Assembly (NCBI GenBank): GCA_028687915.1 | Contig: JAQTZF010000001.1 | Span: forward strand, 101,969 to 165,968 | DNA: 64,000 nt | Origin: Candidatus Daviesbacteria bacterium | GTDB lineage: Bacteria; Patescibacteriota; Microgenomatia; Daviesbacterales; UBA10151 | Direction: 5' to 3' | Program-made: the position numbers and the translations under genes | In this document: positions 31,225 through 47,473 of the stretch, in pieces | How positions within the stretch are numbered: the stretch's first letter is position 1 | How the letters are laid out: each line of letters begins with the position of its first letter | The notes under the pieces: model-generated | What the model was told of the DNA's origin: nothing | The model's input: only the letters and a program-made list of their open reading frames with translations | Database searches by the model: none

Positions 31225-31632
31225 ATGTCCATCTTTTTAAGAACTCTTTTATTAACATTATTTTTACTTATTTTTCTCTCTTCCTCTCGCTTAGCTCTCG
31301 CTGCTGATCCTCCCGGAGGCGCAGGTGAGGCTTGTCCTAATGGAGCCTCTGGTATTAACACTGCTCTTGGATGTGTACCTACTGAACCCTCCGCCTTTAT
31401 TCAGGCTGTATCCCGTTTGCTAAGTGGTATTGGAGGAGGGATTGCCCTTCTTCTTATGATTGCTGGATCTTTTAGAATGATTACCTCTGGTGGCAATCCT
31501 GATGGTGTAAAAGCTGGTTCTGAACAATTTACCTCTGCTTTGATTGGATTATTATTTATTATTTTTGCTGTGCTACTATTAAAAGTAATCGGGGTAGATA
31601 TTTTAAATATCCCAGGATTTGGATCTATTTAA
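31225..31632 (+). CDS. VirB2/TrbC-like pilin paralog 1 (signal peptide plus two TM helices).
   Basis: Cleavable signal peptide ...LALA|AD, a Cys pair, then TM-ITSGGNPDG-amphipathic-TM. This is the same architecture as the five downstream paralogs. Confidence 0.5.
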   Translation: MSIFLRTLLLTLFLLIFLSSSRLALAADPPGGAGEACPNGASGINTALGCVPTEPSAFIQAVSRLLSGIGGGIALLLMIAGSFRMITSGGNPDGVKAGSEQFTSALIGLLFIIFAVLLLKVIGVDILNIPGFGSI

Positions 31633-31635
31633 TAT

Positions 31636-32010
31636 ATGACTAAACTACTTGCACAAGGATTAACAATACCAGGTCTAACAGGAACACCAATCCCTATTCC
31701 AGGAGTTGGTGGTGAATCCACTGTACGAGACGCCACCATAGGAGGATTCCTCACTCCTCTACTTGATGTAGTTTTCTTAATTGCTTCTGTTTTAATGTTT
31801 GTTTGGATGGTTTGGGGCATTATGCAATATATTTTTGCGGGAGGGGAAAAAGAAAAACTCGCTAAAGCCAGGTCCAGAATCACCTGGGCGATTGTTGGTT
31901 TTTGTATTGTTTTACTTTCTTTTACTATTTCACAGTATGCTAAAGAAATTTTTCCACCCAATTCAGACCCAAACAGCGAACAAACTGTAACAACCGTTTC
32001 AACACCATAA
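31636..32010 (+). CDS. VirB2/TrbC-like pilin paralog 2.
   Basis: TM-FAGGEKEKLAKARSRITWAIVGF-TM, with the shared S/AGG(E/D)KEK motif. Confidence 0.5.
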   Translation: MTKLLAQGLTIPGLTGTPIPIPGVGGESTVRDATIGGFLTPLLDVVFLIASVLMFVWMVWGIMQYIFAGGEKEKLAKARSRITWAIVGFCIVLLSFTISQYAKEIFPPNSDPNSEQTVTTVSTP

Positions 32011-32011
32011 C

Positions 32012-32317
32012 ATGACACCAACACCTGTTAATTTAAAAAGTCAATTTGGATTCGGTTATTTTGAAAATTTAGGTCAGGGTTTTAGTCTTTTAGTGATGCC
32101 TATTTTTGAAATTGCTGGCGTGGCTGTTATTATTTACCTACTTATAGGAGGCATTAAATATATGACCTCAGCTGGAGATAAAAACGCGGTGGCTTCTGCC
32201 CAGCAAATGATTACCCATGCTATTATTGGATTTATATTATTGGTATTATTATTTGTAATAGTACAATTCGTACCAGAATTTTTTGGAGCTGGTGCATTAA
32301 AGATTATAGGAAGATGA
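32012..32317 (+). CDS. VirB2/TrbC-like pilin paralog 3.
   Basis: TM-TSAGDKNAVASAQQMITHAIIGF-TM. The stop/start sits tight against the neighbouring genes. Confidence 0.5.
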   Translation: MTPTPVNLKSQFGFGYFENLGQGFSLLVMPIFEIAGVAVIIYLLIGGIKYMTSAGDKNAVASAQQMITHAIIGFILLVLLFVIVQFVPEFFGAGALKIIGR

Positions 32318-32652
32318 ATCAATTACTAGCAGCAAACCCATCAAGCGTCATAGGAACCATTACCCCTCCTCCTGGTATTAAAGATTTGGTGGATAAAGGC
32401 GGCGCTGGTGGAATTAATTCTGTTTTAACAAGTAGTATTATTTTAATCTACCAAGTGGCAATTGTTTTATTTGTCTTCATGATTGTCTTTGGTGCTTTGC
32501 AATGGATTATCTCCGGAGGAGAAAAAGAAAAAATTGCTGCTGCTCAGGGAAGAATTACCAATGCTGTTATTGGTTTGGTTATTTTAGGACTAGCCTGGGT
32601 TATTGTCTCTGTTTTAGGTAATTTTACTGGAATTAAAGTTGGGGGTGTTTAA
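32314..32652 (+). CDS. VirB2/TrbC-like pilin paralog 4.
   Basis: QWIISGGEKEKIAAAQGRITNAVIGLVILGLAWVIVSV, nearly identical to paralog 5. Confidence 0.5.
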   Translation: MNQLLAANPSSVIGTITPPPGIKDLVDKGGAGGINSVLTSSIILIYQVAIVLFVFMIVFGALQWIISGGEKEKIAAAQGRITNAVIGLVILGLAWVIVSVLGNFTGIKVGGV

Positions 32653-32701
32653 AACCAACCCAAGACTTGACAAGGGTTTTATTGTATGCAAACATTAATT
32701 C

Positions 32702-33061
32702 ATGATCCAAGAAGTTTTAGCAGCTGTTAGCCCCACCCCGATAGTAGTTGATTTAGCCAATGTTGGTGTTGGTATTCCTGCAGATACAAGTGTGGGTCTT
32801 ATCATCGGAAATGCCATCAGAATTATTATGATGATTGCCTTAATTGGTGTTTTGGCAATGTTAATTTTTGGGGCTTTTCAATGGATTGTTTCCGGAGGAG
32901 AAAAAGAAAAAGTAGCTTCTGCCAGAGGACGAATTACCAATGCTTTAATTGGATTAGCTATTTTAGGATTAGCTTTTGTAATAGTAACTGTAGCTGGAAA
33001 CTTAGTTAATATAAATATCTTTGATATTAAAATTCCAAATCTTGCTAACCCAGCTCCTTAA
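32702..33061 (+). CDS. VirB2/TrbC-like pilin paralog 5.
   Basis: QWIVSGGEKEKVASARGRITNALIGLAILGLAFVIVTV. Confidence 0.5.
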   Translation: MIQEVLAAVSPTPIVVDLANVGVGIPADTSVGLIIGNAIRIIMMIALIGVLAMLIFGAFQWIVSGGEKEKVASARGRITNALIGLAILGLAFVIVTVAGNLVNINIFDIKIPNLANPAP

Positions 33062-33120
33062 TCAATTCTGGCTACCCCTCCTTGCTTGACCTGATTTCTT
33101 CTTTTTAGTACTGTTAATAT

Positions 33121-33480
33121 ATGAAAAAATTCCTAGTCTTAATTCTTAATTCTCTTTTCTTAATGATTTATACCCCGGTTTATGCTGATAATCCGGGACC
33201 TGCAGGACCCAAACAATTACAGGAACTTTTTATGCGAATTATTAACCTGGCTGCAGAGGCTGCTTTTGTTGTTTTACTTATCATGTTAGTTTACGCCGGC
33301 ATCAAATTTTTAACTTCTGGTGGGGACCCAAAAGCAATTGGAGCAGCTGGGGGCACCATCACCTGGGCATTGTTAGGAATATTATTTATGGCAATTGGCT
33401 GGTTACTGCTACTATTAATCAAAAATTTTACAGGAGTAGATGTAACACAATTTTGTATTGGTTTTAATGGTTGCCAGTAA
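33121..33480 (+). CDS. VirB2/TrbC-like pilin paralog 6 (with signal peptide).
   Basis: Signal peptide ...PVYA|DNPGPAGP, then TM-TSGGDPKAIGAAGGTITWALLGILF-TM. Confidence 0.5.
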   Translation: MKKFLVLILNSLFLMIYTPVYADNPGPAGPKQLQELFMRIINLAAEAAFVVLLIMLVYAGIKFLTSGGDPKAIGAAGGTITWALLGILFMAIGWLLLLLIKNFTGVDVTQFCIGFNGCQ

Positions 33481-33486
33481 TTATTC

Positions 33487-35532
33487 ATGAAATATCTGCC
33501 TTTGTTTACTCTTGGACTTTTAATAAGTTGTATCTTTCTCTTTTTTCCTGCAACAATCAAAGCTGCTTGTACTAGTGAGGGTCCTGCTTGTGTCTATCCC
33601 AAACAAGATGGAGGCACTTGCCAGGGAACTTGCTCCAAAACTCAAAATATTTTTGTTTGCAGCCCATCAGCACCTGATTGTTTTACTCCTTCTACACCCT
33701 CACCTTCCCCTGGTCAACCATCAATACCCCCTCCTTCCACACCAATATCAACAAGTATAATTATTGGTGCCCAGCTTCCAGGAGCTATAACCATCAACAG
33801 ATTAATTCCTTCCCAGTACAGTTTCCAATGGATTAAATTTCAATATTCCCTGGGAAGCAGCCAAGATCTGGAGGGTTTAATAAGAAGTGCAAGGAGTGCC
33901 AGTTCAGGTGGGGGCAGAACTTATCAGGTCTTAATTTCTGTTGCCAAAAATACAGCCGGTATTGAAACTTTAAAAAACCCAGATACTTATCCACCCGAAC
34001 AGGATCCTGATTATTTTACTCATCAGTATTGTCCCTATGATGAAGAGCTGGAAACTTATAATATCCCCTACAATTGCGGCACAGATCCTGTCAGTGGAGA
34101 ACCTCAAACTTGTTATGAACAACGCAGAGCTCAACCTAAAAGCGATAATGGTTATACAAAATTTAGAGATCAAATGGAAGCCCTTGCCCCAAGATTAAGT
34201 GGTGCCTCAGCTGTTGAAGTATGGAATGAACCAAACCTGGAAGATGAATGGACACGACAAGGACTGGGGCCGGTTAATCCTGAAAACTATGTTAATTTTA
34301 TGAATTGTGGGATTAAAGGGCTTAAAAAAGGCGGATATACAGGAAAGATTATTAGCGCTGGCTTAGCTCCAAATGCTTATGCCACAAGTACTGGTCAATC
34401 AAACATGAATGATTTAACTTTTTTTAATAGCTTTATTGATAAGGGAGGATTAAATAATATTGATGCAATCGGCTGGCATGCTAATATTACTTCTGAAATA
34501 GCACCAAGTGATAATCCAGGTGATAATGGATTTAAAAGAGTCCAACATGCCCTTGGAAAAGGTAAACCTGTATGGTTAACTGAATTTGGCTGGGATAGAA
34601 GTACTTTTAGAGGTGCGGATGATTACGAAAGACGCCAGCTGCAAGCCCAATATATTGCCCAGGCTTACGAGGTAGCAGATAGGTTAGGCGGCATCGGTGC
34701 AATGTTTGTCTGGAATTTCGGCTTTACTATTGATTCCCCGGGACAACCTGAATTTATTCCCTGGGATATAGAGGGTACAATCCCCCGGGGTCTACTTTGC
34801 CAGCCAAATCCATTACGAACAACTCGTCCAGACAGAGGAGACACCACTTATGTACACGATGAATCCATTGCTGATGATCCTGTACCAGCCAAGGTAGCCG
34901 GAGTTGCTTTATTACCAAGAATAATTATTGATGAAACAACTCAAAGCGCAGCACAGGTAAATGGAACTGATGTCCAGGTTACAAAAAGTTTCTTCAGCGA
35001 ACTTTTAAACTGGCTCTCTTTTATTCAAAATTTTGCTTGTTCTACACTGGGACGAGTTCTTGGTTTAAGAGATTTTTGTACCCCTAATTTATCAGTAGGA
35101 ACAACTGAATCAGGCACACGTCCTCCCGGAAAAAATACCCAACAATTTACACTTCAAACAAATAGTTTAAGTAAAGTCTCAATCCCACAGGGAATTACGC
35201 TTATTCCGGAAGATAAAGACTGTAATTTAGGGCAAATCAAAGAGGAAGGCGTAGATATTGGGAATCAAAAATTAAATGAACTAAGTGAAACCCTGGGAAC
35301 TACCACTGGTTTTTATGGAAACAATATGGTCGATTTTAAAACCACAAATAATCCTGATTGGGAAAGGTGTATGGTAGAACGAATGAAGACAGAGAATTTA
35401 AATATAGGTAATAAATTATTTGAACAAGATAGAAGATCAGCTGATTTATATTGTAGAAAACAAGTAATGTGTAAAGGCTTATATCCAAATGGTATATGCC
35501 CATTTGAACCTACCCCTACTCCTGCCAGATAA
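33487..35532 (+). CDS. Secreted clan GH-A glycoside hydrolase (GH5-like), with a Cys-rich N-terminal module and a Pro/Ser-rich linker.
   Basis: Signal peptide. VEVWNEPNLEDEW carries the NEP acid/base motif and VWLTEFGWD carries the TE(F)G nucleophile motif, spaced about 120 aa apart as in (beta/alpha)8 GH-A enzymes. The N-terminus has a six-Cys module followed by TPSTPSPSPGQPSIPPPSTP. Confidence 0.5.
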   Translation: MKYLPLFTLGLLISCIFLFFPATIKAACTSEGPACVYPKQDGGTCQGTCSKTQNIFVCSPSAPDCFTPSTPSPSPGQPSIPPPSTPISTSIIIGAQLPGAITINRLIPSQYSFQWIKFQYSLGSSQDLEGLIRSARSASSGGGRTYQVLISVAKNTAGIETLKNPDTYPPEQDPDYFTHQYCPYDEELETYNIPYNCGTDPVSGEPQTCYEQRRAQPKSDNGYTKFRDQMEALAPRLSGASAVEVWNEPNLEDEWTRQGLGPVNPENYVNFMNCGIKGLKKGGYTGKIISAGLAPNAYATSTGQSNMNDLTFFNSFIDKGGLNNIDAIGWHANITSEIAPSDNPGDNGFKRVQHALGKGKPVWLTEFGWDRSTFRGADDYERRQLQAQYIAQAYEVADRLGGIGAMFVWNFGFTIDSPGQPEFIPWDIEGTIPRGLLCQPNPLRTTRPDRGDTTYVHDESIADDPVPAKVAGVALLPRIIIDETTQSAAQVNGTDVQVTKSFFSELLNWLSFIQNFACSTLGRVLGLRDFCTPNLSVGTTESGTRPPGKNTQQFTLQTNSLSKVSIPQGITLIPEDKDCNLGQIKEEGVDIGNQKLNELSETLGTTTGFYGNNMVDFKTTNNPDWERCMVERMKTENLNIGNKLFEQDRRSADLYCRKQVMCKGLYPNGICPFEPTPTPAR

Positions 35533-35579: not shown

Positions 35580-37295
35580 ATGTCTGCCTTCCAAAAAGTC
35601 TTCTCCTTATTATTTATTTTATTTATAGCTAACTTATTTATTTTTATTTCTCCGGCTTCTGCAGAAAGCAGTCCATGTTTAGGAGATTGGTGCCCTTTAA
35701 GTACTGCCAACTATCAAGATGAAGTTGCTACTCAAAGATTTGGAAGAAATATTTTAGTTTTTGGACATGTTGCGCTATTTGGTACAAACCCATTAGGAGG
35801 ACAAACATACAGTGAAAAAGTTGCCTATAATACTGTAAACGGTAAAATCGTAGCCTCAGCAGTTCCTGGTATTGGCCCTGGAAACATTAATGATGGCGCA
35901 TTAGCCATGGCAGGTAAAACAATAGATTCTTTATATACTCCACCTACCTCCAGCATAGAATATCTGGCTAATATAGGAGAAAATATTGGTATTGCTCCAA
36001 AATCTGCATATGCTCAAGAGATTGGTGGTTCAGGTTATAACGTAATTAGACCAGTACTAAAGCTCTGGCAAGTCACCAGAAATATTGCTTATGTGGGTTT
36101 TATTTTAGTTTTTATGGCTGCTGGGTTGATGATTATGTTCAGACAAAAACTTAATCCTCAAACAGTTATTGGTATCCAACAAGCCTTACCTGGAATAGTG
36201 GTTGGATTAATATTAGTTACATTCAGTTATTTTATTGCGTCTTTAATTGTAGATCTTTCTTTCGTGGGTGCCAGGCTAGTTGCAGGACTCTTTATCAGCA
36301 CTGGTGAAGTAAATTTTTATGGGTGTAGTGTAGTCGCCCTTGACGGAAGTTGCTCTTCTGGAGATAACGAATCAGGACTAATAAACACTTATAATAAATC
36401 TGATGCTTTTGATATGTATGGGCGAGCAGGAACCAGAGTTAGTAATATTTCTGATGTTTTTGGACAAGTATGGGGAACTCTTAGTCCATCCGCACCAACA
36501 AGCCCATCTGGGGTAGATGGACTTTTAAAAAGGCTTCAGGATGCAGCTAATGGAGCCCGATCAGGAGTATTATTTGGACCAGGAGGTGCTTTAGTCGGTG
36601 CTTTTAGCGGCTTAATTAATTATAGTATTGGCCAAGCAGCAGCTGCTGGAGTAACTGCCACACTCGCATCACTATTAATTCCATTAATTCTTGGTATTGC
36701 CTTGATGATTCAATTTGTCAAACTAATACTTTCATTAGTTATGTCTTATCTGCAAATATTGTTGATGGTTATTTTTGGACCAATCTTAATTATGGTGTCT
36801 GCAGTTCCAGGCAGAGGTGGAGCTTTAAGTTATTGGTTAAAAGGGCTCTTTGCTAATGCTTTGGTGTTCCCTGCTGTTTTTGCTGGATTTTTGTTTGCAG
36901 GATTATTATTAAATTGGAATAGTGCCAACCTAAACCTGGCTAACATGCCTATGTTTGGCGGATTACATCCTGATATTTTAAAATCAGTTTTAGCTTTTGG
37001 CGTATTATTAGGATTACCTGCTATTCCTGATATGGTCAGAGATGCTTTTGGAGTAAAAGCACCACAAGGATTCATGAAAGCAGCTATAGGAGGATTTATG
37101 GGTGGAGTTGCTGCAGGCAAAGGTGGATATAACCAAGCCATGGAAAAAACAGGTATCAGATCAGAACAACAAGCAAAACAAAAACAAGATATCGAATCGA
37201 AGCAAGCAGGTTATGTACAGGGAGCACGTCCAGTTTGGGCTCGTCCAACCATAGGCGGTAGAATAAAGTCATTCTTAGTAGATAACGCTAAATAA
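35580..37295 (+). CDS. TrbL/VirB6-like polytopic T4SS inner-membrane protein.
   Basis: Signal peptide plus a roughly 150-aa periplasmic domain, then six or more TM helices (IAYVGFILVFMAAGLMIMF, GIVVGLILVTFSYFIASLIV and others), then a Gly-rich tail. This architecture and its position in a T4SS locus match VirB6/TrbL. Confidence 0.55.
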   Translation: MSAFQKVFSLLFILFIANLFIFISPASAESSPCLGDWCPLSTANYQDEVATQRFGRNILVFGHVALFGTNPLGGQTYSEKVAYNTVNGKIVASAVPGIGPGNINDGALAMAGKTIDSLYTPPTSSIEYLANIGENIGIAPKSAYAQEIGGSGYNVIRPVLKLWQVTRNIAYVGFILVFMAAGLMIMFRQKLNPQTVIGIQQALPGIVVGLILVTFSYFIASLIVDLSFVGARLVAGLFISTGEVNFYGCSVVALDGSCSSGDNESGLINTYNKSDAFDMYGRAGTRVSNISDVFGQVWGTLSPSAPTSPSGVDGLLKRLQDAANGARSGVLFGPGGALVGAFSGLINYSIGQAAAAGVTATLASLLIPLILGIALMIQFVKLILSLVMSYLQILLMVIFGPILIMVSAVPGRGGALSYWLKGLFANALVFPAVFAGFLFAGLLLNWNSANLNLANMPMFGGLHPDILKSVLAFGVLLGLPAIPDMVRDAFGVKAPQGFMKAAIGGFMGGVAAGKGGYNQAMEKTGIRSEQQAKQKQDIESKQAGYVQGARPVWARPTIGGRIKSFLVDNAK

Positions 37296-37320: not shown

Positions 37321-39555
37321 TTAACCTTTTAATCCTTCTTCTAATGCCTTTTTTAAAGTTCCTGTTATAAACTCCCATATAAAGGATCCTGCAAACTTAA
37401 GATCTTTTCTGTGCTCAATCTTATTATTAACCATAATATCCACCACTCTTTGTACCTTTTTTGCTGTAAGATCATCAACAGCTACTTTAAAGTCCCCTGA
37501 TCCAGGAACAAGCTCTGGCCTCCCGGCTCTTATTTCTCTTTCTGCCTGTTCTGCGGCTCGCTGTTTTATCTTTAACTTCTCTTTACCAGAGAGTTTAATA
37601 TCAAAATAATCTGCCAGTACCATTTCTTTTTCCTGCATCTGAATAAATTGCGGAGCATTAGGATCAGTTAAACCAGTCAGTTTATTAACCCCTGCTAAGA
37701 TTTCATCTTCAGATAATCTTTGTTTGCCTGTCGATTCTATTTTCTGTCTAGCATATTTAATAAAGTTCATTAGTAAATGCTTTTTTGTTTCCCAAGATTC
37801 TGCTTTTGAATATTCAAAAGCATTTAAGAGTTTGCCCAATGTATCAAAATTTGGATTTAACAAAAAAGATTCAGCTGAACCGCAGAGTGCTTTTCTACCT
37901 TCCTCTGGTCCATCAACAAACCTTGAGGCCCAAAGACTCATAACTTGCGCCCCCATTGGAATAAAACTGAAATCATTACTCGAAACCACACCTTTTTCTA
38001 CTTTTCTCCTCAAAAGTCTGAAGTTAAGATGGCCCACTCTTTCACCACGATTGTTATCGTTAATCCTTAGGGCTTCATCGCTTTGTTCCTTGGGTCCACG
38101 ATCTTGATATAAGAACCTGCCCTTCTCGTCAATATAATCAGGCGTTGCATCAATTCCTGTTCTTTCTTTAAAAGACGAGTATTCTTTATAAGACAAAAAA
38201 TCAGCTGGAGCGTTTAATCTGACAGTTCTTGTCCAAAAATCACCCCCATAAATATCTACCCCCTCAAGAAGTTCAATTTGGCTTCTCAAAAGTCCGGCTT
38301 CAGCTCTAAGAAATTCCCTAAAACGCATAATTTTTGACATTGGGTAGTCACAACCATCTCTTCCTCCTGCCCAAGTCGGTTTTTCAGGACCATCATAATC
38401 AATCCCAACGGTTTTTTCATTAATTTTCCCCCTATTTACTATCAAATAGTCATACATGATTCCCCTACCAGTAAAGCGGAACATTCTTTCAGCCATGTTT
38501 GAAGCCCATTCATACTCATTTGCTTTATAACGGCTATCTACCAGCTCATCGTAATCTTCATGTCCTTTACTCTTTAAAAACTCCCGAAATACTTTGTCTT
38601 GTTCTTTCTCTGCATCCTCCTGATATTTTGAGAATTTTTGGGTTTCAGAAAGATTTTCAAACTTATCTTCCCTAGAACGATCTTCAGCTTTCTGTTTGTT
38701 TAAATAATCCTCATAATTTCCTACTACTACTGGTATTTCTGCAGGATCTATTTTTAGCTCTAAACAAGCCCTTTGAAGAGCCAAAAACTGTTGAACCTTC
38801 TTACCAAAACCACCTCTTCCTGCTTCTGAATTAGCCCTGGCGAACTCATGACCATGATCTTCATAGTATTGAAGAGCCTCAATAAAAGGATTAAATGTTT
38901 GAGGGGCCTCTCCTTCACCTCTCGCAACCTCTTCTTGCAGCGCGAATAAAACGTCGTACCAGTCCGGCGCTAAACTTAGAGCAGCTCCAGAAACATCTTT
39001 AATGCTTCCTTTATTCTCGTAAGCATTAAAGGCAGAATGAAAAGAAAGCCTGGCTTTAATTTCATTACGCATCCGGTGAGCCCAATCTTTTTGATCTTTA
39101 AACTGTTCGTCAGACAATTGTTCACCTGTAATTGGATCCTTATGTTTTATCTCTAAAGTTTCTAAGATTGCTTGTGCATTTTGAAGATCAATTTGTGTCT
39201 GTTGGGTTAAATCACTCTTGGAAATTTCTACTAATGCCAAAGTGTCTTTAATGTGTTTCTCTGCTTCTTCTCTTTTTTTTGGCCAAACAACTTCAATTGG
39301 ATATTGTTGAGGACCCATAATTTCAATCGCTGTCCAGCCCGGTGGTATATCCTGTCCTTGACGGGTAGTTTTCCGTCCTTCTATTTCTTCTCCCGCGTCT
39401 TCTCCTAATGCGGCATTAATTGCAGCAGCCGCTTCCGGACCATGTATTCTGGCTATTCTTGCTTTTTGCGCTTCAGTAAGAAGCTCTTTTTGATTTTCTC
39501 CACTGGCACCTGTTTCTGTTCCACCTGGTTCTGGCATATGTTTTTCTCTTTCCAT
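37321..39555 (-). CDS. Hypothetical large soluble protein, 744 aa, acidic, with no recognisable domain.
   Basis: Long ORF oriented against the surrounding T4SS genes. No TM helix and no motif identified. Confidence 0.5.
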   Translation of the reverse strand: MEREKHMPEPGGTETGASGENQKELLTEAQKARIARIHGPEAAAAINAALGEDAGEEIEGRKTTRQGQDIPPGWTAIEIMGPQQYPIEVVWPKKREEAEKHIKDTLALVEISKSDLTQQTQIDLQNAQAILETLEIKHKDPITGEQLSDEQFKDQKDWAHRMRNEIKARLSFHSAFNAYENKGSIKDVSGAALSLAPDWYDVLFALQEEVARGEGEAPQTFNPFIEALQYYEDHGHEFARANSEAGRGGFGKKVQQFLALQRACLELKIDPAEIPVVVGNYEDYLNKQKAEDRSREDKFENLSETQKFSKYQEDAEKEQDKVFREFLKSKGHEDYDELVDSRYKANEYEWASNMAERMFRFTGRGIMYDYLIVNRGKINEKTVGIDYDGPEKPTWAGGRDGCDYPMSKIMRFREFLRAEAGLLRSQIELLEGVDIYGGDFWTRTVRLNAPADFLSYKEYSSFKERTGIDATPDYIDEKGRFLYQDRGPKEQSDEALRINDNNRGERVGHLNFRLLRRKVEKGVVSSNDFSFIPMGAQVMSLWASRFVDGPEEGRKALCGSAESFLLNPNFDTLGKLLNAFEYSKAESWETKKHLLMNFIKYARQKIESTGKQRLSEDEILAGVNKLTGLTDPNAPQFIQMQEKEMVLADYFDIKLSGKEKLKIKQRAAEQAEREIRAGRPELVPGSGDFKVAVDDLTAKKVQRVVDIMVNNKIEHRKDLKFAGSFIWEFITGTLKKALEEGLKG

Positions 39556-39672
39556 AAACCCTCCTTTATTACTAAATTACAATCCAAACCTAAAATTGGC
39601 CTACATTATAATCTAAGGCTGAGCTTATATCAAACCCGATCTAATCGGGTTCAAATTTAGTATAGCACAGCT

Positions 39673-40899
39673 TTAATCACACTTCTCTGCAGCATCTTCT
39701 TTTTTAAGGCCACAATGCGGACATACTTCAATACCCTTGCCAGATGGAATATCTCCCTCACATCTGGGACATTTGAAAAAAGCTTCCTGAGCACCTGACC
39801 AGGTTGACATTTCTCCTCCAATTTTATTGCCTGAGAATCCACAGCTCCCACGAAGTCTTGGTGCCCCCATTGCAATTAAGCGCCTCTTCCTTTCTTCATA
39901 TGCTTCATCACCTACAGTTAATTCATTTGACTCAGTTATTTCTCCCCTAAGCAGAGCCAAAGCATAATTATCATGGGCAATCTTATTTCTTTCTGCTTCT
40001 TTAATATCCTGATTCTCTAAAGCATTTAAAACATCCCTTCTAAGGGGCTGTAGCTTATCTAAAAGCCAATGGCAACTATCTTGTTGTCTATTACTATGAT
40101 TTGGATCTAAGGCCTTTATTACGTCCATGTGAGAGTTAAACCTTTCCCCTCCTTTAAGCCAGACAGGTGTTTTTAACAAATCTACATCTGAAGAACTTTC
40201 GCTTAATTGATTTTCTATACTTAAAAACTGATTTAAAAAGTTTGTTGCTTCACTGGTAGTTAGGTGATTTCGGTATGCAATTGCATCTACCCTATCTTCT
40301 AACACCTGAAAAACAAAAGTAAAGTTGTGATCTTTAAACCCATCTTCTTTTTTTCCGGGTTCTGAATGCCAAACAGCAAAATCTCCTTTATCTATTACTC
40401 CAGCAAACAGGGGTTGCTCAATCTTTTCTTTAAAACCAATACACTCTGCTCTTGCTCTTATGCCTTGTCCTTTTTTAAAGCTTTCTAAGATATCTCCATC
40501 TTGTTCATACCCAATGGAGTAAATCTGATTTGGCAAACCATTTTCACCCCTTTTTAATCCATAACTATAGCGGGTGATATTTTCTTCAACAATGTATTCA
40601 CGGGTAAAATACTTGAGGTTTTCATCTACTCTGGTACGCCATGAGGCAATATTAGAACAATTTCGACGGGCGTAAATTTCGTCTTGAAGATTGAATGCTT
40701 GTTGTGTTTCTGTAGCCATATTTTTCCTGCTCGGGATCAAACTACGGTTATGGTTCCTGGCTTCCACAAGCAGTTCACATGCTTGTGGTTTACAGTTGCG
40801 GCACAGCTCTTGAATTTCACAAGATTCCCATTGTCGCCTACGGCGACCCGCCCCTATAAAATACATAAGTATGTTGTTTTTGTCAATTCCTATCAGCAA
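39673..40899 (-). CDS. Hypothetical protein with a C-terminal zinc-ribbon (CPRC...CPHC).
   Basis: 408-aa ORF co-oriented with and upstream of the 744-aa gene. The C-terminus reads FKCPRCEGDIPSGKGIEVCPHCGLKK. The true start may be the internal MATETQQAF. Confidence 0.4.
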   Translation of the reverse strand: MLIGIDKNNILMYFIGAGRRRRQWESCEIQELCRNCKPQACELLVEARNHNRSLIPSRKNMATETQQAFNLQDEIYARRNCSNIASWRTRVDENLKYFTREYIVEENITRYSYGLKRGENGLPNQIYSIGYEQDGDILESFKKGQGIRARAECIGFKEKIEQPLFAGVIDKGDFAVWHSEPGKKEDGFKDHNFTFVFQVLEDRVDAIAYRNHLTTSEATNFLNQFLSIENQLSESSSDVDLLKTPVWLKGGERFNSHMDVIKALDPNHSNRQQDSCHWLLDKLQPLRRDVLNALENQDIKEAERNKIAHDNYALALLRGEITESNELTVGDEAYEERKRRLIAMGAPRLRGSCGFSGNKIGGEMSTWSGAQEAFFKCPRCEGDIPSGKGIEVCPHCGLKKEDAAEKCD

Positions 40900-40983: not shown

Positions 40984-42141
40984 ATGGAACCACACCCTAT
41001 CCCACAAAATGTTACATCTTTTGAATTCCACTTAGTTGGAGACATGACTCTTAAGCAGTTTGCCTATCTTGGTGCAGGCCTGGGAATGGCTTATTTATTA
41101 TATGCCACCATGTTCTTTTCTCTGCCAATTGTGGCTATCCCTTTAATTTTGGTATCTACTATATTAGGCGTGGCATTTGCTTTTGTTCCTATCTACGACC
41201 GGCCATTTGATCATTGGGTCTCAGCCTTTTTTAAAGCAGTTTATTCTCCAACTAAAGCTTCTTTTAAAATAAAATATGACCCTAAACTAAAAGTTGAACC
41301 AAACGATCCTTTCTTAAAGGATAGATTACAATTATACCTTTCAACTATGGGAATGACTGTTAATTTATGGGATAAAGCAGCAACTACTCAACCAAGAACA
41401 ACTCAAACACAATCAACCCCAACAGCCTTACAAGAAAAAGAAGTTGCTCTGGCAGAAAATTTAATTAGTAAAACTATGGATAATATTCAGACACAGACAC
41501 AACCATCAGCCTCAGAAAAATTACCAAGTCAGCAGGAATTAACTAATTTAGTAGAAATGGCAAAACAAGCACAATTATTACAGGGAAAAATTTCAGATAC
41601 AGAAAATTTAATCAAACAAATGACAAGCAGCACCAAGCAAGCAGAAGCATCACAAGTTCAATCTAGTTTAAAAGCCTTGATTCAGCAAACAGAAGAATTG
41701 TATAAAAAAACATCTACTATGAATCAAGCAACTCCTCATACAGCTCAACCTCAAACAGCAGCCATACCACAAGTACCAAGCATTCAGGCTGTTACTCAAC
41801 CAGTTGCCCCTCCAAAAGTAACTGTGGTACAACCACTGGCCCACAAAGAAACACAGGTGGTCTTAACCACCACCCCAAATATCATTAATGGAATGGTAAG
41901 TGACGAAGCTGGAAATTTCATAGAAAATGTCATTGTTATTATTCACGATAAAGAAGGTATTCCTGTTCGAGCATTAAAGACGAATAAGTTAGGTCAATTT
42001 GCCGGAGCAACTCCATTACCCCTGGGTGTCTACACCATTACTTTGGAGAAAGATAATTTTACCTTCCAAACCCTACAACTCACACTGGATAATTCAGTCT
42101 TAGGACCACTGCAAATCATCGCCAAAAAGGGAGGGCAATAG
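40984..42141 (+). CDS. PrgI-family (VirB3-like) T4SS membrane protein fused to a long Q/T-rich linker and a C-terminal carboxypeptidase-regulatory-like beta-sandwich.
   Basis: N-terminus FEFHLVGDMTLKQFAYLGAGLGMAYLLYATMFF...VAFAFVPIYDRPFDHW matches the PrgI family pattern. C-terminus IINGMVSDEAGNFIENVIVIIHDKEGIPVRALKTNKLGQFAGATPLPLGVYTITLEKDNF matches the CarboxypepD_reg pattern (GxVxDxxGxPIxxAxVxL...TDxxGxFxxxxLxxGxYTL). Start taken at MEPHPIP. Confidence 0.55.
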   Translation: MEPHPIPQNVTSFEFHLVGDMTLKQFAYLGAGLGMAYLLYATMFFSLPIVAIPLILVSTILGVAFAFVPIYDRPFDHWVSAFFKAVYSPTKASFKIKYDPKLKVEPNDPFLKDRLQLYLSTMGMTVNLWDKAATTQPRTTQTQSTPTALQEKEVALAENLISKTMDNIQTQTQPSASEKLPSQQELTNLVEMAKQAQLLQGKISDTENLIKQMTSSTKQAEASQVQSSLKALIQQTEELYKKTSTMNQATPHTAQPQTAAIPQVPSIQAVTQPVAPPKVTVVQPLAHKETQVVLTTTPNIINGMVSDEAGNFIENVIVIIHDKEGIPVRALKTNKLGQFAGATPLPLGVYTITLEKDNFTFQTLQLTLDNSVLGPLQIIAKKGGQ

Positions 42142-42143: not shown

Positions 42144-43043
42144 TTGACCACCAGCCAACAATTTATTCCTATTCAGGATGTTAATAAGGATTTAGTTTTT
42201 CAAAAAGATGGCAGTGTCGGCATTATTATCTCTGTTTCAGCAGTTAACTTTGCCCTGCTGTTTGAAACAGAACAAATATCTATCATTGATTCTTTTGCCG
42301 GGCTTTTAAATTCTTTATCTTTTCCTATCCAAATAGTTATCTATTCTAAAATCATGGATGTGTCATCTTATTTACACACTATTGATAATGCTTTAGCAAA
42401 ACAAACCAATCCTAACTTAAAAAAGATGACTTTAAGCTATCGCGGGTTTGTGGAAAAAAGCATTAAAGATAATAACGTGCTGGATAAAAAGTTTTATGTT
42501 TGTATTAAATTAACCTCTCTTGAGTTAGGTTTATTACCTTCTAACATGGAAGAAAAAACTAAAAAGGTGGCAACATTGCTTGAACCACGAAGAGATCATT
42601 TAATCAGGCAATTAGAGCGTTTAGGATTAAAAGCCAAACAACTATCTACAGAGGAGATTATTAAACTCTTTTATGAAATATATAATCCACCCATTACTGC
42701 TTCTGTTGCCCTGCCTGTACAAAGCAATATTAAATCTAGCCCCTTACTGGAAATTAATAAACCAGAAGTAATTCCTCAAACCCCTAAAGTAGAGGATAAT
42801 TTACCACCAAAACTGCGACCAATTAGAGCTAATTTGACTCAGCAAGTATCAACAACAGTAGTTCCACCTGCTCCTACTCCTGCACAAGCACCAATTACAC
42901 CACCAGTCATTCCAAAACCACCCACTCCGGTTGCTGCTCCTTTAACTAACCTATCTCCTATCACAGCAGCTAATTTAACATCTAATGCTTCTACTTTTAC
43001 ATCTCCTTTTGTGGTTGAAGAACTACCTGATGACGGACCCTAA
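42144..43043 (+). CDS. T4SS protein resembling the N-terminal domain of VirB4/CagE/TrbE, possibly the detached N-terminal part of a split VirB4, with a Pro/Thr-rich C-terminal tail.
   Basis: FIPIQDVNKDLVFQKDGSVGIIISVSAVNFALLFETEQISIIDSFAGLLNSLSFPIQIV follows the VirB4 N-terminal domain pattern (F-p--i-dg-i--kdGs-g-vl-v---n--l-s--E---l---f---Ln-L--piQi). The last 80 aa are low-complexity P/T/A. Confidence 0.4.
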   Translation: MTTSQQFIPIQDVNKDLVFQKDGSVGIIISVSAVNFALLFETEQISIIDSFAGLLNSLSFPIQIVIYSKIMDVSSYLHTIDNALAKQTNPNLKKMTLSYRGFVEKSIKDNNVLDKKFYVCIKLTSLELGLLPSNMEEKTKKVATLLEPRRDHLIRQLERLGLKAKQLSTEEIIKLFYEIYNPPITASVALPVQSNIKSSPLLEINKPEVIPQTPKVEDNLPPKLRPIRANLTQQVSTTVVPPAPTPAQAPITPPVIPKPPTPVAAPLTNLSPITAANLTSNASTFTSPFVVEELPDDGP

Positions 43044-44790
43044 ACAAAAACAATTAACTTTTGAAGATGCGGTTGCCCCCTATGAAGTAGAGGTTGATTT
43101 TTCGTTCCTAAAAATTAACCACCGCTATTTCCGTTCCTTTTTTGTATCTTCTTATCCGCGCTATGTTGAACCAAATTGGCTGGAGCCATTAATTTCATTT
43201 GAGCACTCAATGGTTTTATCAATGTTTATCTACCCTACCAGTTCAGCTGGCATTTTGGATGATTTAAAAAGAAAGATTGCTGAAATGGAAGCCACTATTC
43301 AAACTGATCAGGAAAGGGGGAGAATTGTTAATCCTACGGTTACAGTAGCTTTGGATGATGCCAAAGCATTACAGGAGCAACTTGCCAAAGGATCGGAAAG
43401 ATTTTTCCAGTTTAGTTTATATATTAATGTGCCCTCAGACTCTATTGAAGAATTAAATAATAAGTCACAGCTGGTTCAATCTACACTAGGCAGTATTTCT
43501 ATTGATTCTCATCCACTTTATTTACAAATGAAAGAAGGGTTTGAAAGCACACTGCCAATTGGACAAGATCCTTTATATCTTGCCCACAATATGGACACTA
43601 CCTCACTTGCCACCACATTTCCTTTTGTTTCCTCAGAGCTAACCTCACCAGATGGAGTTATTTATGGCATTAATGCCCATAACGATTCTTTAATTATTTT
43701 TGATAGGTTTAGCCAGGAAAACGCAAATTCTGTAGTTTTTGCAACAGCCGGTGCCGGTAAATCATATTTTGTAAAATTAGAATCTCTCCGTTCTTTAATG
43801 TTGGGCACAGAAGTAATTATTATTGACCCGGAAAAAGAATATGTAGATTTAGCCAAAGCTGTAGGGGGAGATTATATAAATTTTTCCACCACTTCACCTG
43901 TAAAGATTAATCCTTTTGACTTACCAGATATTTTAAATAGCGAAGAAGATGAATTAGGAAGAAAGATTTTATCTTTAACTGGATTTTTACGCTTGGTTTT
44001 AGGAGACCTCACTGCCAACGAAGTAGCAGTTTTAGATAGAGCCTTAAATGCCACTTATAAGTTAAAGGGGATTACAGCAAATGTTTTTAATAAAACAGAT
44101 CCTGCCAGTAAAATAAAAGTTGAGTCCCCGTTGATGGAAGATTTATATAAAGTGCTTATTGGCATGGAGGACAGCCTGGCGGGAAGCCTAGCTATAAGAT
44201 TGGAAAGGTTTATCAAAGGTTCTTTGGCTGGTATTTTTTCTGCTCAATCAAATATTAATATTCAAAACCCTTTTACTGTCTTTTCTGTTCGTGAATTACC
44301 AGACCAGTTAAGACCATTAGCTATGTATTTAATCCTTGATTATATTTGGACAAAAATCCGCAGAGAAATTAAAAAAAGGATTTTAGTGGTGGATGAGGCT
44401 TGGTATATGATGAAATACCCTGATTCTGCTTCTTTTTTAGTAGAAATGGTTAAAAGATCTAGGAAATATTACCTTGGAGTAACCACTATTAGCCAGGATG
44501 TAGAGGATTTCCTAGGACAAGACCGGGGCAAAGAAATCATTTCCAACTCAGCAATGCAGATATTATTAAAACAAGCACCTGTGTCTATTGAAAAAATAGG
44601 CGCTGTTTTTAATTTATCTCAGGGTGAAAAAAGACTGCTAACCACGGCTGGAGTAGGACAGGGGTTGTTTTTTGCTGGAAATGTACACATTGCCATGTCT
44701 ATTGTCGCCTCAGAAGAGGAGCATATCTTAATCACAACAAACCCCCGAGAAATATTGGAACGCCAGGAAAAAGAAAAAGGAGTTAGCTAA
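43030..44790 (+). CDS. virB4: VirB4-family T4SS ATPase (TraC/TrbE/PrgJ-like).
   Basis: N-terminal INHRYFRSFFVSSYPRYVEPNWLEPL, the classic VirB4 segment; Walker A ATAGAGKSYFVK; Walker B ILVVDEAW; C-terminal NPFDLP and TISQDVEDF motifs. Start taken at MTDPKQ (ATG 43030), overlapping the previous ORF by 14 nt. Confidence 0.8.
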   Translation: MTDPKQKQLTFEDAVAPYEVEVDFSFLKINHRYFRSFFVSSYPRYVEPNWLEPLISFEHSMVLSMFIYPTSSAGILDDLKRKIAEMEATIQTDQERGRIVNPTVTVALDDAKALQEQLAKGSERFFQFSLYINVPSDSIEELNNKSQLVQSTLGSISIDSHPLYLQMKEGFESTLPIGQDPLYLAHNMDTTSLATTFPFVSSELTSPDGVIYGINAHNDSLIIFDRFSQENANSVVFATAGAGKSYFVKLESLRSLMLGTEVIIIDPEKEYVDLAKAVGGDYINFSTTSPVKINPFDLPDILNSEEDELGRKILSLTGFLRLVLGDLTANEVAVLDRALNATYKLKGITANVFNKTDPASKIKVESPLMEDLYKVLIGMEDSLAGSLAIRLERFIKGSLAGIFSAQSNINIQNPFTVFSVRELPDQLRPLAMYLILDYIWTKIRREIKKRILVVDEAWYMMKYPDSASFLVEMVKRSRKYYLGVTTISQDVEDFLGQDRGKEIISNSAMQILLKQAPVSIEKIGAVFNLSQGEKRLLTTAGVGQGLFFAGNVHIAMSIVASEEEHILITTNPREILERQEKEKGVS

Positions 44791-44792: not shown

Positions 44793-46514
44793 ATGGCTGC
44801 CTTAAATCAAAAATTAATAGAAGACACCATACATTTAGTAGAAACATACCAAAAAAGCACAGAAGATTCAGCTTTTAGGAGACGCTTTAATTCGGCAATT
44901 GCCAGAGATGTTAATGCAACTTATAAAAACCGTCCGTTAAAATTATATTTTGAAGTACTGGCAAGTATTAATAATCCTAAATATGGAGAATCATATAAAA
45001 ATATTCAGCGCCTGGTTAAACATGATGACGAAGGAATCATTTCAAAAGCCCTGCTTAGAGTAGACCAAAATGATCTAAAGCATTTATATGCAGCAGCAAA
45101 AGATAATACTAACTCAACAAAATACCCTGATAAAGAAATCAAAGATATAAACAACATCGAAGAGACCATAAAAGATCCCAACCAAAAACGAGAAGCTCAT
45201 AAAAAGCGACTTGAAGAAACAAGCTATCTTGCTGTTGAAAAAAAGACACCTACCTCAAGTGAAATAGAAAAACCTGAAGAAAAAACAGGCCCTGGCTCTT
45301 CCCCAGAATACAAAAAATCATATAATCCAGCCACCCAGGAGGAAAAAGTCAGACTAGAAGCAGCTTTTAACCAAACAAGACCTGAAGTTTCACAGAATGT
45401 TTTAGTGGGACCAAGCGGTGAGCCAATTAGAAATATTTATTCTGAAGAACCGCCACAGGAAATATTTGAACCCACCTCTTCAGAACCAGACAGCTCGTCA
45501 TTACCTCAAATACCTGATTTTGGTGGTATTTCACGCACAACCAACTTTGCCAAGAATATATTTAAAGGGGGAGAAGCCGTAGAAACATTAGGAGCTGAAG
45601 CAGGAGTAAGAATGGCTGCTGGAAAAGCAGCTGTAGCAGGAGCAGAAAAAGTTATTGCCAAAGCAGGTGCAGGAACAGCCACTAGAATTGGTGCAGGATT
45701 ATTAGCGAGAGCTGGATTTACAGCTGCTGCAGGAGCAGCCGCTACAGGTGTTGGAGTACCTGTGGCAATAATTATTACCCTGGTGACTGCTTTTGGAAGT
45801 CAAATCAAGAAACTAGGTAAGTTATTGCTTCAGGTTACAGTTGCAATTACATGTGCTTTTATTCTAATGTTTTTTTGGAATTGGGGAGAAAAAATGAATT
45901 CACTACTTCCTCCTTATACTGTCGGCGAAGCTGCAGAATTGCCAACAGTCACACCAACAACTACACCTTCTCCAACTGGCCCAAACCCAACACCTGCTCC
46001 CGGCGTTACTGCCAACTGCCCCATCTCTGGTGGAAATATCAGTTGCGGCTCACAAAATACAAATTATTACGCCTGTCCAGGCGGGCATTGCAGTCTTGCA
46101 TATCGTCGATCTACTCCAATAAATGAAACTAATTGTAATCGGTATCCAGCAACAGCTTATGGTATGGATATTTTGGCAAGTGCAGGGCAGGTTGTTTCCA
46201 TCCCTACTATTAGAGACACCGATGGAACAGTAAGAAACTTAGAATGTTCTTTTGTTTATCAAGATGCATCAGGAGAAGCAATAAATCAATTTAACTGTAT
46301 TGCGGTTGGAAGCACTATCAGTCCACCTGATCATTACTATATTCAATTTCACCACCTTAGAGCAGTAATCCCCTCAGGACCGTATAGAACAGGGAGTCCA
46401 GCTGGTTATGTTTTAAATGACCATACCCATGTTCAAATCGGCAGAAATGGAGTCTGTCAAGGTACATCTATCTCGTCTTGTATCGTTCCTGAAGAAACTC
46501 TACAATGTTATTAG
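44793..46514 (+). CDS. Membrane-anchored M23-family peptidase (putative T4SS-associated peptidoglycan hydrolase).
   Basis: Central TM helix (VAIIITLVTAF...ITCAFILMFFW). The C-terminal domain carries YGMDILASAGQVVSIP (M23 HxxxD-region analog), FHHLRAV, and HTHVQIG (the HxH motif), in the order expected for lysostaphin-type M23 peptidases, plus a Cys-rich insert. Confidence 0.55.
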   Translation: MAALNQKLIEDTIHLVETYQKSTEDSAFRRRFNSAIARDVNATYKNRPLKLYFEVLASINNPKYGESYKNIQRLVKHDDEGIISKALLRVDQNDLKHLYAAAKDNTNSTKYPDKEIKDINNIEETIKDPNQKREAHKKRLEETSYLAVEKKTPTSSEIEKPEEKTGPGSSPEYKKSYNPATQEEKVRLEAAFNQTRPEVSQNVLVGPSGEPIRNIYSEEPPQEIFEPTSSEPDSSSLPQIPDFGGISRTTNFAKNIFKGGEAVETLGAEAGVRMAAGKAAVAGAEKVIAKAGAGTATRIGAGLLARAGFTAAAGAAATGVGVPVAIIITLVTAFGSQIKKLGKLLLQVTVAITCAFILMFFWNWGEKMNSLLPPYTVGEAAELPTVTPTTTPSPTGPNPTPAPGVTANCPISGGNISCGSQNTNYYACPGGHCSLAYRRSTPINETNCNRYPATAYGMDILASAGQVVSIPTIRDTDGTVRNLECSFVYQDASGEAINQFNCIAVGSTISPPDHYYIQFHHLRAVIPSGPYRTGSPAGYVLNDHTHVQIGRNGVCQGTSISSCIVPEETLQCY

Positions 46515-46515
46515 A

Positions 46516-47019
46516 ATGAACAAAAAAGTACTAATTATACTACTACCTTTTGTGGTTGTTATTATTGGATTGGCTGCTTTATTGCTTTTCCCAAAAAAAT
46601 CTCAGATTACCCCAACTGTAATTTCTAGCCTTACTCCAACCCCTACCCAAACTGCGATTTTAAAACCATTAGTTGTAAAACCACCTACAGACCAAGAACT
46701 AGGACTAGTCTCTGTTGTTCCATCACCTGATCCTACCGGACAAAACAAAATTTCCCCAATCGAACGAATTACTTTTACTTTTAATAAAAGCGTTGACCCT
46801 ACTACTTTGGAATTTAATTCACAACCTGAAGTGGAACTAGAAAAGTATTTTTCCGAGAATAATACCAAACTATTGATTCAACCTCAGGGATTGGCTTTTT
46901 GGAAACCAAACACTGATTATGTTTTAACTATTAGAAAACAACTGAGGTCAAAGGATGGATTTAGCCTAAAAGAAGACATTATGTATAATCTAAAAGCAAT
47001 TACTCAAGGAGGAGAATAA
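46516..47019 (+). CDS. Membrane-anchored bacterial Ig-like (Big_5/SbsA-like) domain protein.
   Basis: N-terminal TM helix, then LVSVVPSPDPTGQNKISPIERITFTFNKSVDPTTLEF...TDYVLTI, the Ig-like pattern (v-s-sPadga--v----i-ltFsepvd---l). Start at ATG 46516, 1 nt after the upstream stop. Confidence 0.45.
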   Translation: MNKKVLIILLPFVVVIIGLAALLLFPKKSQITPTVISSLTPTPTQTAILKPLVVKPPTDQELGLVSVVPSPDPTGQNKISPIERITFTFNKSVDPTTLEFNSQPEVELEKYFSENNTKLLIQPQGLAFWKPNTDYVLTIRKQLRSKDGFSLKEDIMYNLKAITQGGE

Positions 47020-47020
47020 A

Positions 47021-47473
47021 ATGGCTAATTTAAGCTCAAAACAAAAAGTTATTGGTGTTATTGCTATCATAGGCACAATATTAATATTAATCTTCCAGTC
47101 TGGGTTTTACAGTAAACCTGCTGCAAAAAGAGAGGAAATAAATAACCCTGCTACTCAAAACCCAGAAGTAGTTTCTACATCTCCCAACCCCTTGGAAAAA
47201 GCAATTATTTGGGGAACCACACCAATCGAAATTACTTTTAATCTTTCTGTCCAGAATATTCCTGAACTAAAATATACATTTGAGCCAGAATCAGATATAA
47301 AAGCAGAGCTTCTAAACGACCGTAAAACTGTAAGATTTACACCAAATAAGCCTTTACCGCTGGGTGCTGACTATACCTTAACTATTCCAGCAGGCGCTAA
47401 GTTTGATGATGATAAAACTCTGGGTAAGGATTATAAAGTTCATTTTAGAACCATAGAGTATAGGGGTGTTTAA
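47021..47473 (+). CDS. Membrane-anchored Ig-like domain protein, a paralog of the previous gene.
   Basis: TM helix plus VVSTSPNPLEKAIIWGTTPIEITFNLSV...ADYTLTIPAG. Confidence 0.45.
   Translation: MANLSSKQKVIGVIAIIGTILILIFQSGFYSKPAAKREEINNPATQNPEVVSTSPNPLEKAIIWGTTPIEITFNLSVQNIPELKYTFEPESDIKAELLNDRKTVRFTPNKPLPLGADYTLTIPAGAKFDDDKTLGKDYKVHFRTIEYRGV

Follow-up and report, generated by a model that had tools for sequence, protein, structure and literature searches.

A stretch of 64,000 nucleotides from Candidatus Daviesbacteria (Microgenomatia), hereafter the window, carries at positions 31225 to 47473 a locus that we identify with high confidence as a chromosomal, vertically inherited type IV secretion system (T4SS) of the clade found in Patescibacteria. 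The same kind of T4SS was published in 2023 (Wang et al. 2023, PMC10633639) and 2025 (Quinonero-Coronel et al. 2025, PMC12102498), and this locus is a further member of the described system. The new detail is that two genes on the opposite strand lie inside the T4SS, one of which belongs to an unstudied family under a cobalamin (vitamin B12) riboswitch. As one more Microgenomatia example of a system surveyed in about 2,400 genomes, the T4SS changes little. The nested riboswitch-controlled family and its T4SS-specific orphan neighbor are the part worth following.

A first-pass annotation of this DNA had described a co-directional locus with six pilin-like genes, a GH-A glycosidase, VirB6/TrbL-like, PrgI-like and apparently split VirB4 proteins, an M23 peptidase, and two immunoglobulin (Ig)-like membrane proteins, and had interpreted it as a non-conjugative core apparatus. 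Its inventory was largely correct, failing in the co-directionality and in the M23 peptidase, and each of its interpretive points is already contained in the two papers cited above. The plus-strand genes of the locus are the following, with lengths in amino acids (aa).

31225 to 31632, plus strand, VirB2-like pilin 1, 135 aa, signal peptide and two-helix hairpin (PF18895, 36.5 bits)
31636 to 32010, plus strand, VirB2-like pilin 2, 124 aa (PF18895, 40.0 bits)
32012 to 32317, plus strand, VirB2-like pilin 3, 101 aa (PF18895, 30.3 bits)
32314 to 32652, plus strand, VirB2-like pilin 4, 112 aa (PF18895, 40.9 bits)
32702 to 33061, plus strand, VirB2-like pilin 5, 119 aa (PF18895, 32.0 bits)
33121 to 33480, plus strand, VirB2-like pilin 6, 119 aa (PF18895, 30.1 bits)
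33487 to 35532, plus strand, secreted 681-aa protein with a probable clan GH-A (TIM-barrel) glycosidase core (signal peptide, weak profile matches, motifs)
35580 to 37295, plus strand, 571-aa polytopic membrane protein, VirB6-like by position and topology (topology, weak matches)
40984 to 42141, plus strand, PrgI/VirB3-like membrane protein with a C-terminal CarboxypepD_reg domain, 385 aa from the ATG at 40984 (PF12666, PF13620; gene call in L001)
42144 to 43043, plus strand, TrsD-like protein, a free-standing homolog of the VirB4 N-terminal domain, 299 aa (NF041427, PF26593)
43030 to 44790, plus strand, VirB4 ATPase of the MPF-FATA (CD1110) type, 586 aa (NF045971, P-loop_TraG)
44793 to 46514, plus strand, 573-aa membrane protein with a cytoplasmic N-terminal domain, two transmembrane (TM) segments, and a Cys-rich outer C-terminal domain (topology)
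46516 to 47019, plus strand, single-pass membrane protein with a Big_5 Ig-like domain, 167 aa from the ATG at 46516 (PF13205, 24.9 bits, threshold 23.6; gene call in L001)
47021 to 47473, plus strand, single-pass membrane protein with a Big_5 Ig-like domain, 150 aa (PF13205, 40.5 bits)

The membrane core is of the Gram-positive (MPF-FATA) style, comprising PrgI/VirB3, a TrsD-like protein with a VirB4 ATPase, and a polytopic protein resembling VirB6; added to it are the six divergent pilins, the secreted GH-A-like hydrolase, the bitopic protein with its Cys-rich outer domain, and two Ig-like membrane proteins. For comparison we used related T4SS loci from other Microgenomatia/Patescibacteria assemblies, designated L003/L004, L005, L006, L007, L009, L010, L012, and L018. 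VirB4 matches NCBIfam NF045971 (conju_CD1110) with 378.6 bits (cut-off 325) over profile positions 180 to 733, matches P-loop_TraG with 86.7 bits, and has ATAGAGKS as its Walker A motif. The 299-aa protein aligns to VirB4 profile positions 2 to 170, carries the TraC-like domain PF26593 according to a precomputed domain table, and matches the TrsD profile NF041427 with 32.6 bits (E = 6.7e-8), below the full-length cut-off. The apparent split of VirB4 is therefore real, and its two genes, which overlap by 14 nt, are arranged in this way in every related locus. It is the normal TrsD-plus-VirB4 arrangement, natural and conserved; a frameshifted or pseudogenized VirB4 was rejected, since all loci show the split with its short overlap and published work describes it.

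PrgI was likewise confirmed, with 32.8 bits for PF12666 (threshold 27) and 28.4 bits for the CarboxypepD_reg domain PF13620. Classical VirB3/PrgI proteins have about 100 aa. In the homolog of about 385 aa found here, a Gln/Pro-rich linker precedes the Ig-like CarboxypepD_reg domain, and precomputed domain calls, which exist for six related loci (L003, L005 to L007, L009, and L010), show the fusion in each of them.

All six pilins exceed the threshold of Pfam T4SS_pilin PF18895 (30.1 to 40.9 bits against 26.6), and each contains two hydrophobic helices in a hairpin of the VirB2/TrbC type. Their pairwise identity has a mean of 27% and a maximum of 46%, in agreement with published figures (mean, 25%; maximum, 54% [PMC12102498]), so that they form an array of VirB2-like pilins of the kind described for the clade.

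The assignments of the next two genes are more qualified. The 681-aa protein has, beyond its signal peptide, the motifs WNEPN (with the N-E-P acid/base Glu) and LTEFGW (with the T-E-x-G nucleophile Glu), both invariant in three orthologs, which fits the glycosidase assignment; its profile matches stay below threshold (Pfam Glyco_hydro_cc, E = 0.0096; PslG in a profile search of solved structures, E = 0.0027). The protein is kept in L003 and L005 and is a candidate functional stand-in for VirB1. The 571-aa protein fits VirB6/TrbL in topology and position: it combines a signal peptide and an outer domain of some 130 aa with about six TM segments. In the closer loci (L003, L005, and L006), it is 61 to 73% identical. 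It has no Pfam match, and its only matches are weak ones to the membrane proteins MMCAP2_0566 and Mbov_0396 of Mycoplasma integrative and conjugative elements (ICEs; E = 1.6e-4 and 1.4e-3), which adjoin VirB4 in those elements. Hidden Markov model (HMM) searches, proposed earlier as a check, thus supported the pilins, PrgI, and VirB4, were weak for VirB6, and returned nothing for M23.

The M23 peptidase had been assigned to the 573-aa protein, and we reject it. M23 was not matched in Pfam, NCBIfam, or PDB profiles, nor with Pfam at E ≤ 10 when six orthologous C-terminal domains were searched, and none of the nine homologs of the family (eight besides the window's own) has an M23 domain. Alignment by hhalign to lysostaphin, using an approximate sequence, gave a probability of 0.2%. 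The motifs are not kept either: the histidine of HxxxD, the first zinc ligand, is Ala, Ser, or absent in orthologs, and the first histidine of HxH is Gln in the ortholog of L005. The two Ig-like membrane proteins that follow are both above the Big_5 threshold.

The locus ends at dnaN, near the probable replication origin, as had been stated before, with three neighboring features.

47470 to 48570, minus strand, dnaN, with all three DNA_pol3_beta domains
49098 to 49365, no strand, cluster of six DnaA boxes, probable oriC (box cluster and GC-skew minimum)
49369 to 50796, minus strand, dnaA (Bac_DnaA, 221.5 bits)

The dnaN gene overlaps the stop codon of the last Big_5 gene and is followed by a Holliday-resolvase-like gene and dnaA; in every related locus reaching that far, the resolvase-like gene separates dnaA from dnaN. 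Six DnaA boxes, each with at most one mismatch, occupy less than 270 bp between the dnaA stop codon and the resolvase-like gene and coincide with the minimum of the cumulative GC skew at 48 to 50 kb of the window, which places oriC about 1.6 kb from the locus.

Gene order was compared only where the contigs of related genomes reach the flanks. There it runs dnaA, resolvase-like gene, dnaN, Big_5 gene(s), the position of the 573-aa gene, VirB4, TrsD, PrgI, the pair of opposite-strand genes, the VirB6-like gene, in most cases a secreted protein in the place of the glycosidase, the pilin array, and SpoIID. The order from SpoIID and the pilins to dnaN and dnaA, whose examination across relatives had been suggested, is thus conserved, and full synteny spans DnaN identities from 86% down to 60%. 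VirB4 is 93 to 95% identical to its counterparts in L003, L005, and L006, where DnaN is 80 to 86% identical, and 72 to 76% identical in L007, L009, and L010, where DnaN is 60 to 70% identical. In a recently acquired mobile element, one would expect the reverse, a VirB4 less conserved than DnaN, and such a conserved motor in fixed chromosomal synteny does not resemble an integrated mobile element. Other parts diverge faster: in the closer loci, the glycosidase-like protein is 53 to 57% and the 573-aa protein 43 to 56% identical. A conserved VirB4 beside fast-diverging surface parts and the 744-aa orphan described below would fit an indispensable motor with host-facing parts under diversifying pressure.

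This conservation bears directly on the alternative that the locus is an integrated conjugative or mobilizable element, with relaxase, coupling protein, and integrase genes that are situated beyond the window or have diverged past recognition. We consider this alternative highly improbable, even though VirB4 is of the conjugative (CD1110/CTn2) type, three large ORFs of the window (open reading frames of 676, 609, and 483 aa) have no Pfam match, and tRNA genes, which are common integration sites, are present at 21 to 25 kb. Relatives with contigs extending into the flanks keep the order SpoIID-T4SS-dnaN-dnaA, VirB4 exceeds DnaN in conservation, and GC content is uniform at 0.37 to 0.40. Among the 37 window ORFs scanned with Pfam, which include every ORF of at least 200 aa, none encodes a relaxase, a coupling protein (T4CP; VirD4), VirB11, or an integrase, just as had been claimed for the first three, and a Walker A motif in a credible ATPase occurs in VirB4 and DnaA alone, with no further credible P-loop ATPase in the window. 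Relaxases near virB4 are also rare in the published survey, with only 15 cases among about 2,400 virB4 genomes (PMC12102498). An ICE was therefore rejected: relaxase, coupling protein, and integrase are missing from the 37 ORFs, and synteny is conserved where an ICE would vary in presence between relatives. The conserved synteny, the conservation of VirB4 above that of DnaN, and the lack of relaxase, T4CP, and integrase in the window all support the non-conjugative core chromosomal apparatus of an episymbiotic reduced-genome bacterium that the first-pass annotation had proposed. The assignment of the DNA to Candidatus Daviesbacteria agrees with two of its proteins, which are identical to PHQ59_00775 and PHQ59_00795 in NCBI.

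The closest described counterparts are other T4SSs of the Patescibacteria. In S. epibionticum, the T4SS cluster SEML1_0006-0019 is essential for epibiotic growth and combines a Gram-positive-type composition with a series of essential pilins, with no recognizable coupling or relaxase proteins (Wang et al. 2023, PMC10633639); a later review gives the number of pilins as six (PMC12857230). In their survey of 3,035 genomes, Quinonero-Coronel et al. (2025, PMC12102498) found that VirB4 of Patescibacteria forms a clade nested in MPF-FATA, with TrsD as its most abundant partner and PrgI/VirB3 common, whereas VirB6 is scarce or undetectable in Microgenomatia. Microgenomatia and Saccharimonadia frequently have arrays of 2 to 11 VirB2-like pilins; relaxases are nearly always missing, T4CP genes are located elsewhere, and dnaA and dnaN are abundant neighbors of virB4 in Paceibacteria and Microgenomatia (PMC12102498). 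Our locus shares with these systems an MPF-FATA VirB4 (72 to 95% identical to that of other Patescibacteria loci) with adjacent TrsD-like, PrgI/VirB3, and candidate VirB6-like proteins, six divergent VirB2-like pilins, hydrolase-type genes beside virB4, a cluster without relaxase or T4CP, and adjoining dnaA and dnaN. It differs as a Microgenomatia (Daviesbacteria) version whose VirB6 and hydrolase are too divergent for standard profiles, in the extra Ig-like domain of PrgI, and in the two opposite-strand units nested between the VirB6-like gene and PrgI. Such nested units are not mentioned in the accessible parts of either paper (PMC10633639, PMC12102498).

With the Gram-positive MPF-FATA systems (Prg/Pcf of pCF10, Trs of pGO1, and CTn2 of C. 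difficile), the locus shares a CD1110-family VirB4, PrgI, and TrsD, and the lack of the outer-membrane core proteins VirB7/9/10, which are absent from the locus inventory. In contrast to those systems, it is devoid of relaxase, T4CP, and surface adhesin, possesses the VirB2-like pilins that are missing from Gram-positive systems, and is chromosomal and, by all indications, vertically inherited.

From the family literature and the anatomy of the locus, a working model can be proposed. VirB4, anchored by PrgI and assisted by TrsD, would drive the extraction of pilins from the membrane; these would be assembled through the VirB6-like channel while hydrolases open the cell wall, and the resulting pilus or conduit may touch a host bacterium and move proteins or other macromolecules rather than conjugative DNA. 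Several points weigh against the identification as a Patescibacteria-clade T4SS of this kind, or against extending it to function. Essentiality has been shown solely in the Saccharibacterium S. epibionticum (PMC10633639), and function has been demonstrated for no Microgenomatia T4SS; PMC11665869 calls the role of the Patescibacteria T4SS completely unknown. For VirB6 and the glycosidase, the supporting matches are below threshold, a VirB8-like component was not identified in the locus, and the 348-aa and 744-aa proteins treated below have no homolog of known function and no fold match. The absence of relaxase and T4CP is established for the 64-kb window only, and most Patescibacteria genomes have VirD4-like genes elsewhere (PMC12102498). 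Finally, the genes appear compatible with either direction of transport, export or import.

The locus does not run co-directionally as had been supposed: the VirB6-like gene is separated from PrgI by two minus-strand genes that together take up about 3.4 kb, and both had been overlooked in the first-pass annotation. With their control elements, they are as follows.

37321 to 39555, minus strand, 744-aa soluble, mostly helical orphan, fast-evolving, found in T4SS loci only
39605 to 39633, minus strand, sigma-70-like promoter TTGATA-17-TATAAT, then a strong Shine-Dalgarno sequence (11/12 consensus match)
39673 to 40719, minus strand, 348-aa soluble protein of an uncharacterized family, C-terminal zinc ribbon (B12 riboswitch 5')
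40733 to 40863, minus strand, cobalamin riboswitch aptamer RF00174 (37.1 bits, threshold 31.5)
40858 to 40886, minus strand, promoter-like site TTGACA-17-TATTTT 5' of the riboswitch (TTGACA hexamer also in L005, L006, and L009)

The two units that interrupt the locus would be independent transcription units and are probably not parts of the core machine. The aptamer has both its core, GGGAA...GUGAAAUUC...GCUG..CCGCAACUGUAA, and the B12 box, AGCCAGGAACC, and ends 14 nt before the ATG at 40719, with an AGGA ribosome-binding site (RBS) 7 nt from that ATG. A longer ORF from a TTG at 40899 was discarded as an artifact; the riboswitch precedes the ATG at 40719, and the gene encodes 348 aa. Riboswitches at the orthologous positions score 30.6 to 59.1 bits. 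The 3' tail of the riboswitch, TCCCGAGCAGGA, includes the RBS and is invariant in seven aligned loci except for one substitution in L009. Since the RBS lies within this invariant tail, its B12-dependent sequestration is the likely control; three of the aligned loci add an RBS-sequestering hairpin followed by a T-run. Judging from these sequences, a B12-dependent shut-off of translation or transcription is the likely mechanism.

The 348-aa protein has no signal peptide or membrane segment and matches no Pfam or NCBIfam family and no solved fold. Three features are conserved: a W-x-S-P-P-G motif, an invariant G-S-C-G, for whose surroundings disorder is predicted, and a zinc ribbon, CPxC...CPHCG, at the C terminus. 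When 1.84 billion representatives were scanned in full with an HMM, 349 relatives emerged at E ≤ 1e-3, shorter forms included; the few with a name are hypothetical proteins of Levybacteria. A riboswitch of the B12 class precedes the family member directly, above the Rfam threshold, in 15 of 17 distinct loci (the window, L003, L005, L006, L007, L008, and L010 to L018); that of L009 is just below threshold with 30.6 bits, and the marginal L019 is the only locus with none. These riboswitches belong to three Rfam families (RF00174, RF01482, and RF01689), so that one gene family is found under three riboswitch classes in different genomes. As in known cobalamin regulons of these classes, which control B12 transport, B12 salvage, and B12-independent isozymes, an above-threshold aptamer with a conserved core lies directly 5' of the ORF, with the RBS in its conserved 3' tail. 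In contrast to those regulons, the 348-aa gene belongs to no known B12-related family, and its product is soluble and without transporter features.

Family genes also occur far from any T4SS, in L008, L011, and L013 to L017 (stand-alone in L008 and L011). Because riboswitches accompany family members at such loci too, the family belongs to the B12 regulon and is tied to B12 rather than to the T4SS. In L016 (1982 to 3064), an AdoCbl-II (adenosylcobalamin) riboswitch is followed by a DUF4430 protein and a polytopic DUF6580 membrane protein, and this pair lies directly 5' of a second riboswitch and the family member. We take DUF4430 to be a transcobalamin-like B12-binding domain, typical of B12-uptake operons, and the pair is probably a small B12-uptake cassette. 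The 348-aa protein itself is most likely a cytoplasmic protein induced by B12 starvation, involved in corrinoid handling or salvage or in bypassing a B12-dependent step; it is the regulatory association, and this only, that points to such a role.

Within the T4SS, the slot between PrgI and the orphan gene is occupied by a different, short-form member of the family in L003 (8879 to 9910) and L018 (9230 to 10117), whose VirB4 proteins are 95% and 74% identical to that of the window. These sequences suggest that the gene has been replaced while the riboswitch-controlled slot was kept, as if the slot itself were maintained. The retention of the slot despite the swapped subfamily member could be taken to mean that the machine mainly imports host DNA, nucleotides, or cofactors, and that the nested B12-regulated gene owes its presence to a role of the system in cofactor acquisition. 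For Saccharibacteria, import has been suggested, with ComB of H. pylori as a precedent (PMC11665869), and the family member of L016 stands beside the riboswitch-controlled DUF4430-DUF6580 pair. We nevertheless regard this explanation as unlikely, since family members with B12 riboswitches far from any T4SS associate the family with B12 and not with the secretion system, while the 348-aa gene has its own promoter on the opposite strand, its product lacks a membrane segment, and cofactor import by a T4SS is without experimental precedent.

The 744-aa orphan, unlike its neighbor, was seen only in T4SS loci, where the zinc-ribbon gene and the VirB6-like gene always flank it. It has 12 homologs among 5.8 billion proteins. 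Profile searches detect homology in L003, L005, L006, L007, and L009, and BLAST detects similarity in L018; the stand-alone zinc-ribbon loci with listed genes yielded no homolog, and a metagenome scan for further homologs recovered only the contig of L003. The promoter and Shine-Dalgarno sequence of the gene are conserved at the nucleotide level in the window, L003, L005, L006, and L007. The gene is therefore probably not under the riboswitch, and the idea that the minus-strand pair forms a single riboswitch-controlled operon is weakened by this separate conserved promoter. The N-terminal MERE of the protein was considered as a translated Shine-Dalgarno sequence and rejected, as a separate GGAGG lies upstream of the first ATG. 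Glycyl-radical, transglutaminase, and relaxase-HUH readings of short motifs in the two minus-strand proteins were also dropped, the consensus spacing being unmatched and the Cys lying in a disordered segment.

With 30 to 41% identity where VirB4 has 93 to 95%, the orphan is the fastest-evolving gene of the locus. It is a possible lineage-specific accessory, adaptor, or substrate of the T4SS. The more specific proposal that it is a secreted substrate (effector) or cytoplasmic adaptor rather than a passenger is one that we consider improbable. Its restriction to T4SS loci at a constant position, its absence from the stand-alone loci just mentioned, its own strong and conserved promoter and Shine-Dalgarno sequence, and its soluble nature without a signal peptide would all suit such a protein, and rapid evolution is typical of host-interaction proteins, although it could equally mean weak constraint. 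On the other side are the lack of any recognizable secretion signal, domain, or fold match, the tiny size of the family, and the protein at the same position in L010, which is not detectably homologous.

Taken together, a B12-gated family gene and a fast-evolving orphan could mean that the T4SS of this Microgenomatia lineage is tied to cofactor economy, a connection that we consider quite doubtful. If the pair did work with the machine, the 744-aa protein might, for example, be a secreted effector or adaptor and the 348-aa protein a cytoplasmic receiver or processor of host-derived corrinoid; the T4SS would then be a nutrient-piracy device with an accessory tuned by B12 status. The conserved nesting of the family gene in the T4SS locus thus offers a testable, if weak, link between T4SS function and nutrient acquisition. 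Independently of it, an unannotated family of about 350 cluster representatives in the B12 regulon across Patescibacteria provides a handle on cobalamin use by these auxotrophs. Searchable literature on cobalamin or B12 riboswitches in the candidate phyla radiation (Patescibacteria) returned nothing relevant, and no full text combined riboswitch, cobalamin, and Patescibacteria; as far as the searchable literature shows, the nested riboswitch-controlled family and the 744-aa orphan are undescribed.

Some minor observations concern the compared loci and the rest of the window. The metagenome-assembled genome records with L012, L013, and L015 are labeled "uncultured Gammaproteobacteria bacterium"; the loci are typical of Patescibacteria, and the taxonomy labels are probably wrong. 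The three large ORFs of 676, 609, and 483 aa lie at 11911 to 13941 (minus strand), 26697 to 28526 (minus strand), and 8528 to 9979 (plus strand), respectively, without a Pfam match or a Walker A motif. A tRNA gene at about 16712 to 16969 (minus strand) is split by a group I intron (Rfam Intron_gpI, 16755 to 16945, 64.1 bits); its exon halves are readable in the sequence, and ARAGORN made no call. L016 likewise has a group I intron, at 4142 to 4328, at the place where L014 and L015 have an intact tRNA. A transfer-messenger RNA gene (25808 to 26196, minus strand) adjoins a ComFC-like gene (25021 to 25713, minus strand) that encodes a phosphoribosyltransferase with a double zinc ribbon.

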